Positions 14,937 to 29,114 of a stretch of DNA of 29,632 bases are shown in pieces. Made by a program: the position numbers and the translations under genes. The notes under the pieces were generated by a model, which did no database searches, had not been told where the DNA came from, and saw nothing but the letters and a program-made list of their open reading frames with translations. This DNA comes from a virus (Duplodnaviria > Caudoviricetes). Within the stretch, counting starts at the first letter, position 1, and each line of letters opens with the position of its first letter. The DNA lies in the IMG/VR virus record IMGVR_UViG_3300049444_000032, positions 1 through 29,632 of that record; one strand, written 5' to 3'.

Positions 14937-14940
14937 AATA

Positions 14941-15011
14941 AATTGATAATGGATAATTGAGAATTGAAAATTATCCGGACATTTTCCATTCTCAATTTTC
15001 CATTCTCCATT
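14941..15011. repeat. Imperfect heptamer palindrome (copy 2)
   Basis: AATTGAT AATGGAT AATTGAG AATTGAA AATTATCCGGACATT TTCCATT CTCAATT TTCCATT CTCCATT. Confidence 0.85.
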
Positions 15012-15219
15012 ATTTCGCCTGCCATCCATGGCCGTCGCCTTCATCCCAGCAGGTAGCAACCACCCGCGTATCATCGGGATGAAATGCGAGCTTGCGACCT
15101 TCGCGCAGCACGCGGATCGATATTCCGATCGGGCGCGGGTGCGGGTATAAAAGATATCCGGCTGCTTCGATCTGGTTCATGGCATCGGCGAGAATCTTGG
15201 CGGCGTCATGGGGTGTCAT
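15010..15219 (-). CDS. Hypothetical protein
   Basis: 69 aa ORF in the operon direction. Confidence 0.55.
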   Translation of the reverse strand: MTPHDAAKILADAMNQIEAAGYLLYPHPRPIGISIRVLREGRKLAFHPDDTRVVATCWDEGDGHGWQAK

Positions 15220-23132: not shown

Positions 23133-24001
23133 GGTCCGCCCTCCATTGCGATTCCATTCGCCGCGATCTTTTGCAGTATTTGACCAAATTGGCCGAGCGG
23201 CGCGTTTTTATATGCCCGGTTTTCCGGCCCCTGAATATACTTGGTTCGCTCTTTCTCGAAGATAACCGTCAACAGCCCCCAAAGCGATTTTATCTCATAG
23301 CCCGCATCGATCTTGGCCCGAACGATTTCCAGCGATGACCTGGTGACGGCCAAGACCCGGTCCTGCGGTTCGCCTCTTAGCGCCGTCAACATGCTGACGG
23401 TCCACTGAACCAGTTTTTTTGCCGTCTCATTGCGGTTGTCGATATGGTCTTTGCCGGCTATCTCTGCCGCCAATCTCAATAATGGCTCGTATGGATTCCC
23501 CTCCGTGGCTTTCTTGCTCGTTGAGTTATCAACAGCCCCGGCGCTTTTTGACGGGCTCTTAAGATATAAAGATAAAGAAGAAGAAGAAGAGGCGCCCTTT
23601 GGCGCCCAAAAGGGCGCGGAAGGGCGCGAACCTGTGGATATCGGCAGCGGCAAGGCCAGTTGTGCCCGCCCCGGTTTCGGCGTAAGTACGCGCCGCTCAA
23701 GCGGAATCTTGCTCTGATATTTATAAAAATTGGCCGACGGCAGGAAATAATGACCTATCTCGTCCTGGCCGATCAGCTCGGCTGTGAATAACTCATCGAG
23801 CGCGGCCGTCACTTCGGCGTCGGTCTTGCGCCGATTCGGCACGACCAGCAGATTGATCTCCTCGGCGTCCTTAGCGACCAACCGGCAGTCATCATCGGCG
23901 TGCGGAATCATCCAGGTATAAAGCAGTGCGGCAAAATCGGACAATCTTTTCAATTTCTTGTCGACCGAGATATCCGTGCTCAAATTTCGCCGCCTGCTCA
24001 T
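23129..24001 (-). CDS. Phage replication initiator / replisome organiser
   Basis: N-terminal RNLSTDISVDKKLKRLSDFAALLYTWMIPHADDDCRL...NFYKYQ wHTH typical of phage initiators; low-complexity central linker. Confidence 0.75.
   Translation of the reverse strand: MSRRRNLSTDISVDKKLKRLSDFAALLYTWMIPHADDDCRLVAKDAEEINLLVVPNRRKTDAEVTAALDELFTAELIGQDEIGHYFLPSANFYKYQSKIPLERRVLTPKPGRAQLALPLPISTGSRPSAPFWAPKGASSSSSLSLYLKSPSKSAGAVDNSTSKKATEGNPYEPLLRLAAEIAGKDHIDNRNETAKKLVQWTVSMLTALRGEPQDRVLAVTRSSLEIVRAKIDAGYEIKSLWGLLTVIFEKERTKYIQGPENRAYKNAPLGQFGQILQKIAANGIAMEGGP
23526..23641. other. Candidate replication origin inside the initiator gene
   Basis: GGCGCCC/GGGCGC repeats forming an inverted pair (23591-23628), an A-rich purine tract (23561-23590) and two 8/9 DnaA-box matches (23526, 23633). 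Confidence 0.4.
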
Positions 24002-24198
24002 TTCGGCGCACCCCCGTTGTTCAGTGGCAACTCGGCGTCAAAAACCTGCCCGTTGTTCTCGTGAAACTTGAGCCGCTTGCGCAGGACCGATTCGATCGCC
24101 GTCGGCTGAAAGGGCCAGGTGCGGGCGAGCTCGGCGATCGTCGCGCCGTTTATAAACTGCTTGACCATGACCGTGCGTACGTTGGCGGTGAGTTTCAT
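23998..24198 (-). CDS. Small HTH-like protein
   Basis: FINGATIAELARTW....IESVLR (DUF433-like). Confidence 0.6.
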   Translation of the reverse strand: MKLTANVRTVMVKQFINGATIAELARTWPFQPTAIESVLRKRLKFHENNGQVFDAELPLNNGGAPK

Positions 24199-24209
24199 TT
24201 TTTACTTTA

Positions 24210-24356
24210 GCGCCATTGGCGCCCTTGCCTTGCCCAACCCAGCCTTGCCTTGCCATGCCGTACCCGACCGGACCATGCCGTACCCGACCGTGCCTTGCCA
24301 TGCCAGGCCCGACCGCACCAAACCTCACCTCGCCCCGCCAGACCCTACCTAGCCTC
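24210..24356 (-). ncRNA. GGY-NN pentamer array D with conserved 3' hairpin motif (putative guide RNA)
   Basis: 27 in-phase pentamers at 24222-24356; starts at the upstream TGA and ends in GGCAAGGGCGCCAATGGCGC. Confidence 0.8.
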
Positions 24357-24846
24357 ATCCATTTTTTATGAGCTTCGGTTTAGGCAAAGATTTCACCGGC
24401 GCAATATCTGCGGGTAATTGCTTTTTAACGTCATCAATAGCTGCCTGTATTCGTCCAGTGAGTAACATGACGTGATCGTATCGCTGCTGGCCTTCAGCGT
24501 TCAGCCGTTCGCGAGGCGTTGAGGCATATCTTTGGCGCTCTAATCTTACTTGCCGCGATTTCCGCAAGATTCCTTTTTCGCGGAGTGCTGCCCTATCCGC
24601 CGGCTCAAGTATTTTGATACCGATGCCCGCCAACGCTTCGGTGTCGATATTGCGCGATCTCCAGAGCGAACGGCGCCAAGAATAGAGCACCGTCTTAAAT
24701 CTGCTTTCCGTGCGTCCGTGGTGTAAAACTTCTTCGATCTGCTCGTATCGCAACACTTCGCCTTCCTGAGGTAATGGAAAAGCCTCATCGAGCCGCCGCA
24801 GCTCGGGCCCATACGGTAGCCCTCTTTTATAAATTCGTATTCCCAT
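24355..24846 (-). CDS. Hypothetical partner protein of the RAMP/array locus
   Basis: 163 aa, basic; AAGGAG SD; sits between arrays C and D. Confidence 0.75.
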   Translation of the reverse strand: MGIRIYKRGLPYGPELRRLDEAFPLPQEGEVLRYEQIEEVLHHGRTESRFKTVLYSWRRSLWRSRNIDTEALAGIGIKILEPADRAALREKGILRKSRQVRLERQRYASTPRERLNAEGQQRYDHVMLLTGRIQAAIDDVKKQLPADIAPVKSLPKPKLIKNG

Positions 24847-24862
24847 TAACAGACTCCTTTCA

Positions 24863-25004
24863 GCGCCATTGGCGCCCTTGCCTTGCCGCGCCTCGCCTTA
24901 CAATGCCCTACCTTGCCTCGCCTCACCCAACCTTACCTCACCCGGCCATGCCAAACCCCGCACAGCCGCACCTTGCCCGACCCAACCACGCCGCGCCGCA
25001 CCAC
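24863..25004 (-). ncRNA. GGY-NN pentamer array C with conserved 3' hairpin motif
   Basis: 26 in-phase pentamers at 24875-25004 (two TGY variants); same terminal 20-mer. Confidence 0.8.
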
Positions 25005-25020
25005 ATCGAATTTTGATTGT

Positions 25021-25138
25021 GCGCCATTGGCGCCCTTGCCTTGCCGGACCTGACCACGCCGTAGCCTGCCGGACCTGACCATGGCACGCCATACCGCGCC
25101 TTGCCGGACCATACCGGACCCCCGCCTTGCCTCACCTC
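25021..25138 (-). ncRNA. GGY-NN pentamer array B with conserved 3' hairpin motif
   Basis: About 21 units starting at the RAMP gene TGA; one 6-nt unit and two degenerate triplets; same terminal 20-mer. Confidence 0.78.
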
Positions 25139-25835
25139 AACTCTTTATTTCCTTAATCTCCGCTGTAAATGTCCCGAACGGCCCCGGCGTCTTACAACCG
25201 GGCCGCCAATCGCCGAGACCTTTGAATCGCCCCGCCATGTCAAAAATCGATTGCAGTACTTTCAAGTTGATTTCATCGTTAGTCGCAATGATCCTGCCTT
25301 CCGAGGTCCAATTATCGAATCGTGGCCTGACTCTGATATGCTTTGATGTTCCGATCTTTGCTCGCTTGACGAATAGGGAAAAATGCAGATCGCGCACGCG
25401 CGTATGATGTTCGGCGAAAGATTCAAGCTCGCGCATTTTGTTAATCTCTTTAATCGAAATCGTTGTACCTTCGACTTTGAGCGGCCAGTGAAAATCTTGA
25501 CAGACTAGCCCGCTTTGACTGAGCGATTTATAAGTGCCTTTGCCTTTGCCGGTCATGACCATCGCGCCGCCTTCCATCAAACAGCGCATGAAATACTCCG
25601 ACGGGATGATCACAATATTTCCATCAGTATTGAGGCAACCGATCCAACGCCACGGAGGCGTGCGATCATCGCCCGCTTTTGATTTTGGTTTATTGGCTGG
25701 CTCATTTTTCCACGCGTCCATTTGATCCGACCAGTCAATATTGTCCGCGTGCATCAACAGCGGCATCGTGCCGGTGATATTTATTTGAAATGTTTTCATT
25801 TTTGCTTTTGCTGCCTTTCTTGTTTGCTGCGCCAT
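25137..25835 (-). CDS. Solo RAMP / Cas7-like RNA-binding protein (Vipr-like)
   Basis: First strand INITGTMPLLMH, IIPSEYFMRCLMEGG (equivalent to RAMP IPGSSLKG), IRVRPRFDNW, C-terminal Gly-rich loop GLGDWRPG...GPFGTF. Confidence 0.75.
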   Translation of the reverse strand: MAQQTRKAAKAKMKTFQINITGTMPLLMHADNIDWSDQMDAWKNEPANKPKSKAGDDRTPPWRWIGCLNTDGNIVIIPSEYFMRCLMEGGAMVMTGKGKGTYKSLSQSGLVCQDFHWPLKVEGTTISIKEINKMRELESFAEHHTRVRDLHFSLFVKRAKIGTSKHIRVRPRFDNWTSEGRIIATNDEINLKVLQSIFDMAGRFKGLGDWRPGCKTPGPFGTFTAEIKEIKS

Positions 25836-25932
25836 TGGCGCCCTTGCCGCGCCTTGCCGTGCCCCGCCTTACCAAACCGCGCCAAACCGTACCGCGCCAA
25901 CGCCTCGCCCTCGCCGAACCCTGCCGTGCCCG
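25829..25932 (-). ncRNA. GGY-NN pentamer array A with conserved 3' hairpin motif
   Basis: About 18-19 units (two are 6 nt) starting right after the immunity-gene TAA; the terminal 20-mer contains the in-frame ATG at 25835. Confidence 0.78.
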
Positions 25933-25933
25933 G

Positions 25934-26143
25934 TTATTTGCTTTCGATCAACTCCGGTTTTTCCACCACGGCCCAAATCAGCGCGGCGACCCAGCCTAAA
26001 ATCGTCCAGCCGAAAAGCATGTTGATAAAAAAGATCGCACCTTGATGGCCAGTCTTGCGAGTCGATGCGATGACGCAAGGCAGTAGATAAAAGACTACGA
26101 TCAAAAACAAAATCGCAAACGTCATAAACATATGTGCTTCCAT
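25934..26143 (-). CDS. Superinfection immunity protein (T4 Imm-like)
   Basis: FYLLPCVIA..RK...AIFFINMLFGWTILGWVAALIWAV; likely start ATG 26143. Confidence 0.88.
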   Translation of the reverse strand: MEAHMFMTFAILFLIVVFYLLPCVIASTRKTGHQGAIFFINMLFGWTILGWVAALIWAVVEKPELIESK

Positions 26144-26144
26144 G

Positions 26145-26249
26145 TTATTTGTCCTTCCTGCTATGCCACCAGACATAGAGTACGCCACCGAAAATAAAGC
26201 CCGCCGTCAGAATCGCTATTGAAATCATTTCATTGATAGTCATAGTCAT
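26145..26249 (-). CDS. Small single-TM peptide, 34 aa (not in ORF track)
   Basis: GGGGGAG SD, then MTMTINEMISIAILTAGFIFGGVLYVWWHSRKDK. Confidence 0.5.
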   Translation of the reverse strand: MTMTINEMISIAILTAGFIFGGVLYVWWHSRKDK

Positions 26250-28366: not shown

Positions 28367-28892
28367 CGGACAAGAACGGCCAAAAGATGAAAAACATCAA
28401 CAAATTCAACAAGATATGTTACTCCGAAACGATATATTATGTAAACTTTCCGACCCAAATTCGACCATAAGTAACCCGTCAAGTAAAACTTTACGGCACG
28501 GGGATTGCGCTACTCCCCCGACCGTGGCACCGCCCAAACCAAATACGCCCGCAAGTCCGGTCAATAACTTTCCCGCGTACTCGGGCGACGAGGGCGGCGT
28601 ACCGGATGCGCTCACCTTGGAGGTATTTGCACTGCGGCGGCGAAATGCAGAGCTTGTGGCCAAGGTCGAATCGTTGAATAACAAACTGACCCGGGTATTG
28701 GAGTGTCTGCAATCGCTTCGGCGTTTTTTCCGCTTGTGGATATATGAGGGCCAAGGCGAGAGTTACGACGCCATTACAGGACGTATGAGCAAGATCGACG
28801 TCATGATCGATCTTATCGAGGATCGCATGGTCGGCGACGCCCCGCCGCTTCATGTATCGAAACGCTGGCGTACATCAATGGATAATGGATAA
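28257..28892 (+). CDS. Hypothetical coiled-coil protein downstream of the repressor (true start probably later)
   Basis: ALRRRNAELVAKVESLNNKLTRVLECLQSL heptads. Confidence 0.55.
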   Translation: MRMTKGPRISQLKKLLLALSVSERQVMVRRAKLRSVSGQERPKDEKHQQIQQDMLLRNDILCKLSDPNSTISNPSSKTLRHGDCATPPTVAPPKPNTPASPVNNFPAYSGDEGGVPDALTLEVFALRRRNAELVAKVESLNNKLTRVLECLQSLRRFFRLWIYEGQGESYDAITGRMSKIDVMIDLIEDRMVGDAPPLHVSKRWRTSMDNG

Positions 28893-28908
28893 TTGAGAAT
28901 TGAAAATT
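28877..28908. repeat. Heptamer repeat arm (copy 3) at a convergent gene junction
   Basis: AATGGAT AATGGAT AATTGAG AATTGAA AATT; short inverted remnant AATTATCCATT at 29105-29115. Confidence 0.75.
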
Positions 28909-29114
28909 TATTCGGTCTCTTTTGGCATCATGAGCGATTCGTATTTGGTGAGCGCCTCAAAAAGCAATTTACTTGAATAATCGATAGCCGGGTCGTCGAT
29001 ATTGTGCGAGTCGCGAAAGGCAAGCCACGCGCCGAGCAGATAACCGAGCGCCAGATGCCCCTCGGGTGTGAGCAAAGGACGCATATAAAATTCCCCCTCC
29101 AATAAATTATCCAT
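28908..29114 (-). CDS. Hypothetical protein (start possibly ATG 29084)
   Basis: GGAGGGG SD precedes MRPLLTPEG. Confidence 0.55.
   Translation of the reverse strand: MDNLLEGEFYMRPLLTPEGHLALGYLLGAWLAFRDSHNIDDPAIDYSSKLLFEALTKYESLMMPKETE

Follow-up and report, generated by a model that had tools for sequence, protein, structure and literature searches.

A short hairpin that probably forms the vrRNA 3′ tail closes four GGYNN arrays in a tailed-phage VIPR locus

A 20-base motif that occurs four times in the genome of a tailed phage is probably the conserved end of four GGYNN arrays, where it would form the 3′ tail of the vrRNA from two elements, a GG-purine break of the repeat rule and a capping hairpin. 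The window, i.e., the whole stretch of DNA analysed here (29,632 nucleotides), is an entire 29.6-kb contig in which terminase, portal, protease, capsid and tail genes are encoded on the minus strand. On sequence evidence, the segment 24210–25930 is a phage VIPR locus. VIPR was described in 2026 as a CRISPR-related system, and its vrRNAs carry a repeat tract that precedes an invariable structured 3′ tail, likened to the crRNA handle (10.64898/2026.04.26.720920). The system and its structured tail are therefore already published. Because published vrRNAs end in such a tail, the element found here is most simply read as a very short form of this known part.

The VIPR locus, its arrays and its neighbours

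The locus comprised vipr, a vap-like gene and four minus-strand GGYNN arrays, each closed by one copy of the motif (Table 1). Vipr matched the structure of SUSP1 Vipr (PDB 36pp) with an E value of 4.1e-10, and hhalign aligned the two proteins over 188 columns (probability 99.0, E 2.7e-18). A tblastn search with Vipr also recovered the SUSP1 gene at ca. 23% identity, and the long form of the vipr ORF matched phrog_4652 from residue 12 (E 8.9e-20). The thumb and G-loop expected of a Vipr RAMP were covered by the 36pp and hhalign matches, in which the key residues were aligned: H17, R158, D197, W198 and R199 corresponded to H17, R138, D177, W178 and R179 of SUSP1. As described in the cryo-EM report, these SUSP1 residues bind the GGY bases of the RNA (10.64898/2026.04.26.720927). 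Among 121 homologous sequences, R158, W198 and R199 were invariant and H17 nearly so, while D197 was conserved in < 90%.

Table 1. Features of the VIPR locus and the adjoining immunity gene (positions refer to the window).
Feature	Coordinates	Strand	Description
imm-like gene	25934..26188	-	Superinfection-immunity family; PF14373 E 9.6e-17; context, outside VIPR
Array A	25844..25930	-	17 GGYNN units (4+2+11, two 1-nt slips); 3 nt after imm-like stop
Tail A	25829..25843	-	GG + 5-bp stem, AAU loop (hairpin 25829-25841); 29 nt before vipr start
vipr	25137..25799	-	220-aa RAMP; start Met at 25799, as in homologues
Array B	25036..25136	-	20 units (3+17, one slip); directly after vipr stop
Tail B	25021..25035	-	GG + identical hairpin; then 18-nt A/U-rich linker to array C
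Array C	24878..25002	-	25 units, single phase
Tail C	24863..24877	-	GG + hairpin; then Shine-Dalgarno-like AAGGAG; vap start 16 nt on
vap-like gene	24355..24846	-	Accessory gene, 163 aa, predicted winged-helix-like
Array D	24225..24354	-	26 units; directly after vap stop
Tail D	24210..24224	-	GG + hairpin; 11 nt before 66-aa ORF (24198-23998)

GGY opened 84 of the 88 units in the four arrays. The sequence-only reading had three arrays beginning at or next to an upstream stop codon, and the stop coordinates bear this out: array B adjoins the vipr TGA (25137–25139), array D the vap TGA (24355–24357), and array A begins just past the TAA of the imm-like gene (25934–25936). In 72 of 144 loci, an array started ≤ 15 nt from the end of vipr (one artefactual value, −588, left out); thus, this layout is clade-wide. 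Arrays C and D, with 25 and 26 in-phase units, exceed the published range of 9–16 units, and > 16 units preceded 75 of the 297 tails called among relatives. Array D also holds an internal duplication.

A homologue of the vap-like gene was found in 100 of the 122 loci whose sequence continued for ≥ 900 nt past vipr. In type II VIPR (SUSP1 / P. fulva), vap1 is a predicted DNA-binding accessory gene. In profile comparisons, the vap-like gene weakly matched the SUSP1 gene behind vipr (probability 24, E 8e-4) and did not match the accessory gene of LESphi2; a structure-based comparison gave weak HTH rows. A weak Rfam match inside vap was below threshold and was rejected. The 66-aa ORF after tail D (23998–24198, minus strand) had neither a family match nor a Shine-Dalgarno-like site, and its stop overlaps the start of a 290-aa ORF at 24001. 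A 106-aa ORF (24038–24358) that spans array D had no family match and was taken as a shadow of the repeats.

No repeat-spacer (CRISPR) array was present among the repeats listed for the window, and no cas genes among the window ORFs scanned. A tRNA scan found none, and no promoter-like site lay close to the locus. Elsewhere in the window, A/T-rich heptamers (AATTGA[T/A] and CATTCTC) at 614–694, 14940–15014 and 28877–28915 form inverted arms common to these three distant places.

Anatomy and conservation of the hairpin

An exact search of the window recovered all four copies of the 20-mer at the positions previously claimed (24210–24229, 24863–24882, 25021–25040 and 25829–25848) and zero copies on the opposite strand; the chance expectation from base composition is ca. 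1.3e-7 copies per window. The motif had been described as a 20-nt handle. Its four copies stand, but its length does not, as the first 5 nt are the last repeat unit, GGCAA. The tail proper is GG plus 13 nt, in which a purine after GG breaks the GGY rule and a 5-bp stem carries an AAU loop. Sequence identity among the four copies ends at the 3′ end of the hairpin, and on the 5′ side only the repeat pattern is common to them. In RNA folding, the isolated 20-mer formed the 5-bp stem with its AAU loop at −7.1 kcal/mol, and an extra G-U pair lengthened the stem to 6 bp in copies C and D. In minimum-energy folds of 61-nt segments as naked RNA, the hairpin was present in C and D and absent in A and B, where a hairpin of this weak stability (−7.1 kcal/mol) was outcompeted by pairing of the repeats. 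None of the folding z-scores of the 61-nt segments around the four copies was notable.

For comparison, 186 related loci were fetched, the viral scan being represented by the best 80 of 103 and the metagenome scan by the best 80 of 141. Among the 187 loci including the window, 185 had a vipr match, 183 of them on the plus strand; arrays lay on the plus strand in 176 of the 185. Removal of identical gene cores left 157 loci, and 297 tails were called in 114 of these (window included), while no tail was detected in 43. Following four strict GGY units, 268 of 433 GG-purine units had a hairpin starting 2 nt in, versus 80 of 3504 GG-pyrimidine units, and shuffles placed one 2 nt into the GG-purine unit in 19.9 of 433. 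The hairpin is thus held in a fixed register with the repeat.

Covariation was assessed on copies chosen by repeat context and the CAATG loop alone, avoiding circularity. The window aside, 80 such copies gave 320 stem cells, of which 312 were Watson–Crick pairs, seven were G-U pairs and one was a mismatch. Reduced to 28 distinct arm combinations, Watson–Crick pairs still filled 106 of 112 cells, against a mean of 42.9 and a maximum of 59 after shuffling. Alignment A2 had 27 rows, as one combination ran into a contig end and was left out; 134 of its 135 cells paired and four of the five pairs changed on both sides, whereas slid controls paired in 29%–38%. On the array strand, G-U exceeded A-C by 8 to 1 (384 cells). 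Eleven tails carried a C-UUCG-G loop, which is an extra-stable RNA loop. The covariation, the excess of G-U over A-C and the C-UUCG-G loops together imply that the hairpin is selected as RNA of the array strand. Covariation across homologous loci was one of the checks proposed with the sequence-only reading; it revealed a conserved hairpin with compensatory stem changes. The proposal of a structured 3′ handle closing each array is likewise upheld by the covarying stem, the fixed register and the structured 3′ tail of published vrRNAs. We consider the hairpin a real feature, well supported by these comparisons as a structured RNA.

The same data bear on whether the motif is instead a DNA palindrome, a terminator or the trace of a recent cassette duplication. 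The four identical copies do likely reflect recent copying, and the 13-mer is a near-palindrome. However, all tails were identical in only 21 of the 89 loci with at least two tails, and pairing was kept in the others; thus, the four copies need not be identical. The stems also tolerate G-U but not A-C. As an intrinsic terminator the motif was rejected, since a T run lay behind only 9 of 297 tails and a terminator scan listed none of the four copies. These readings are largely refuted by the covariation, and we regard them as highly improbable.

On the 3′ side of the hairpin, conservation ended ca. 1 base (one purine) past the 13 nt. On the 5′ side, the last repeat unit read AA or GA in 71% of tails and carried 2.27 bits, compared with 3.84–3.93 for units −3 to −10, and the penultimate unit was partly fixed. 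Given these three observations, the last repeat units are likely scaffold rather than guide. A pseudoknot through the AAU loop was considered and rejected, as a downstream loop partner occurred in 53 of 94 cases versus 47.3 in shuffles. The tails of the window are thus not of the SUSP1 type, which is ca. 40 nt long and contains a pseudoknot.

The AAU loop: clade distribution and the AUG codon

The type of loop followed the Vipr tree (153 proteins). In a 35-locus clade around the Vipr of the window (FastTree support 0.94), 65 of 82 tails had a 5-bp stem with C-AAU-G on 21 different 5′ arms (one overlapping call in L096 was removed), compared with 17 of 214 tails outside it. In a sister clade (L059, L061, L062, L065, L067, L071, L135 and L161), most tracts ended in a GGAAC-like unit plus 2 nt; no hairpin was detected at these tract ends, and the arrays were staggered. 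Some Vipr proteins therefore do not need the hairpin. Since the tails of SUSP1 and LESphi2 begin with GG-G and the sister-clade tracts end in GGAAC-like units, the feature common to all of them is the GG-purine break.

A loop that stays fixed while its stem turns over could mean that the hairpin is a sequence-specific handle, its C-AAU-G loop being recognised by Vipr (or Vap), which would cleave or retain the RNA there, so that guides self-mature in a Cas6-like manner. The tracking of loop type along the Vipr tree fits this idea, as does the persistence of tails where the repeats have decayed: at L008:3257, L095:3260 and L106:2474-3379, GG plus 5-bp C-AAU-G tails are intact, although the preceding GGY units are strongly degenerate. 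H154 of Vipr, which all 121 close homologues share and SUSP1 lacks, is a further point in its favour, and Vipr is a RAMP like Cas6 (10.64898/2026.04.26.720920). However, common ancestry can be enough for loop types to track the tree, and AAU was mixed with UUCG, UAU or AAC loops within single loci. Moreover, the VIPR papers, in their accessible parts, report no nuclease activity of Vipr, and hammerhead ribozymes lie between the guides in some VIPR types (10.64898/2026.04.26.720920). We therefore regard a specific handle, although it is the leading alternative to our own reading, as unlikely. The same low likelihood applies to the broader proposal that C-AAU-G is a clade code read, and perhaps cut, by Vipr as an ancestral Cas6-like RAMP, with loop types marking exclusive VIPR clades; were this so, the guides of AAU, GUAU, UAU and loopless clades could be neither swapped nor hijacked.

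The AAU loop closed by C-G also creates an AUG, which had been noted to open reading frames, and the handle had been suggested to let the protein autoregulate its translation. The frames themselves were read correctly: the AUG of copy A (25835) is in frame with vipr, with 233 codons to the stop, and those of copies D and C open the mini-ORFs MALK* and MALKGVC*. The mini-ORF of copy C overlaps the vap start as TAATG, and that of copy D stops 3 nt before the 66-aa ORF, so that all three gene-leading copies in the window (A, C and D) are linked to the next gene. A working start, with array-bound Vipr governing how vipr, vap and the next gene are translated, would fit this arrangement. It would also fit the position of the Shine-Dalgarno-like core of vipr, 14 nt from the start, which makes vipr one of 8 among 59 cases lacking a core 3–11 nt before the start; the 66-aa ORF shows none. 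In addition, 185 of the 297 tails hold an AUG, and a close homologue, P0002, shares the in-frame N-terminal extension.

Across the relatives, however, these links were not maintained. Of the 297 tails, 112 had no AUG, and tails with and without it occurred together in 37 of 114 loci. Among the 59 tails upstream of vipr, 40 had an AUG; it lay in the vipr frame in 6 and read on into vipr in 3, the window included. The 6 in frame are fewer than the expected third (p 0.012, with relatives that are not independent). Upstream of vap, 35 of 46 tails had an AUG and 10 of these were in frame. Fusion or stop–start coupling equalled that of control frames both for vipr (19/40 vs. 31/80) and for vap (14/35 vs. 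35/71; p ca. 0.4). AAGG or GAGG before the stem was equally common in tails without (83/112) and with (128/185) an AUG (p 0.43), and in 4 of 47 GUAU loops closure by U-A abolished the AUG. In 51 of 59 and 41 of 47 cases, the hairpin ended before the ribosome site of the downstream gene began. Of 120 homologues, 116 began no earlier than around the second Met, with no upstream extension, and 4 were called with a long one. The relatives thus do not share what a leader peptide or uORF would show, a start codon kept together with its frame or its coupling, and the loop AUG looks incidental. It probably arises simply because the loop ends in AU and is closed by C-G, and autoregulation through it seems very improbable, although some local use of the AUG in this phage is conceivable.

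Guide maturation, targets and known VIPR systems

Our preferred reading, a vrRNA 3′ tail made of a GG-purine break and a capping hairpin, suggests a route by which guides might be made. The minus-strand locus would be transcribed as a single message, and Vipr would coat the repeats with one subunit per pentamer, as in SUSP1. A purine after GG would misfit the pyrimidine pocket and might thereby set the 3′ border and register of the filament. The guides could then be freed by host nucleases, which would cleave the uncoated A-rich linkers and trim the RNA as far as the hairpin, and the 13-nt hairpin would cap the RNA and protect its 3′ end. The resulting Vipr–guide complex may bind DNA by the 1-nt-skip code and silence a rival element. 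Several of these steps have counterparts in the VIPR reports: SUSP1 places one Vipr on each repeat, its Y3 pocket excludes purines and the 3′ end of its filament is capped by a pseudoknot (10.64898/2026.04.26.720927), and Vipr silences DNA by the 1-nt-skip code (10.64898/2026.04.26.720920; 10.64898/2026.04.26.720927). Against this reading we count the lack of an above-chance target, the hairpin-less sister clade, the 43 of 157 loci in which no tail was detected, the weakness of the hairpin in naked-RNA folds of A and B, and the length of arrays C and D beyond 9–16 units.

With regard to targets, the four arrays had no 1-nt-skip match above shuffled controls within the window. When 203 guides of the clade were run against the window and 1.4 Mb from related loci, skips of 0–3 and shuffles gave an equal spread of scores. 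Exact 8-unit scans of IMG/VR returned 104 (C), 32 (B), 26 (A) and 12 (D) matches, and for arrays B, C and D the extension of matches past the seed was at chance level. With a 1-nt skip, the 3′ block of array A matched one of 14 match clusters (L328/L330/L337) at 20 of 20 positions over its first ten units; as this is a ca. 5% chance event, it is not claimed as a target. The cluster shows stops in both expected frames. Alongside these loci (and L341 and L347), many other seed matches read as an LA[FL]NGT[NK]A-like peptide. The best match of the 3′ block of array B, 16 of 20 at 25986–26015 on the plus strand, lies in the imm-like gene of the phage itself, immediately upstream of array A, and was equalled by 3 of 30 shuffles.

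The closest described counterpart is Escherichia phage SUSP1 (type II VIPR). Its Vipr is a homologue of that in the window, and both loci have GGY/NN arrays ahead of vipr and behind the genes, an accessory gene that follows vipr and a conserved structured 3′ tail starting with GG-G. In contrast, the SUSP1 tail spans ca. 40 nt with a pseudoknot, whereas that of the window is GG plus a 13-nt hairpin. The window further differs from SUSP1 in the placement of arrays B and C between vipr and vap, in the 25–26 units of arrays C and D and in a Vipr identity of only ca. 23%. Pseudomonas phage vB_Pae_LESphi2 (OQ594955.1) is similar in another respect: its tails follow directly on a GGCAA or GGCGA unit, as in the window, and begin with GG-G, where GG is followed by a GC-rich stem of 4–6 bp with a 4-nt loop, and two of its three tails fold a short hairpin at the GG-G point. 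It departs from the window in carrying a further, longer hairpin behind the first and a loop other than AAU. Moreover, the three arrays found in the stretch fetched were all upstream of vipr, and the accessory gene did not match the vap of the window.

A broader parallel is the crRNA of type I CRISPR, in which the 3′ repeat handle is cut by Cas6 and a short stem-loop caps the RAMP-coated guide. The window departs from it in having no repeat-spacer array or cas genes among the ORFs scanned and a non-contiguous guide, and cutting by its RAMP is only putative.

In their accessible parts, the VIPR papers (10.64898/2026.04.26.720920, 10.64898/2026.04.26.720927, 10.64898/2026.10.15.759431 and 10.64898/2026.10.21.760802) describe neither a 13-nt triloop tail nor the processing of type II guides, and the VIPR texts, to the same extent, give no account of vrRNA release or of what a tail requires. 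The string CAAT does not occur in the supplement text of the first of these (10.64898/2026.04.26.720920), while its figures and data S1–S4 may show tails of this kind, e.g., for P. fulva or in fig. S17. A literature search for the C-AAU-G triloop returned unrelated matches only. The tail of the window is close to the smallest possible and comes with many natural compensatory variants, which could make the stem, the loop and the GG-purine break separable; at 15 nt, it would also offer a more compact programmable guide than one ending in a 40-nt pseudoknot. Among the related loci, that of Gordonia phage Trine (L325) has a 12-unit GGYNN array at 2128–2237, inside an annotated hypothetical gene just after the vipr homologue.
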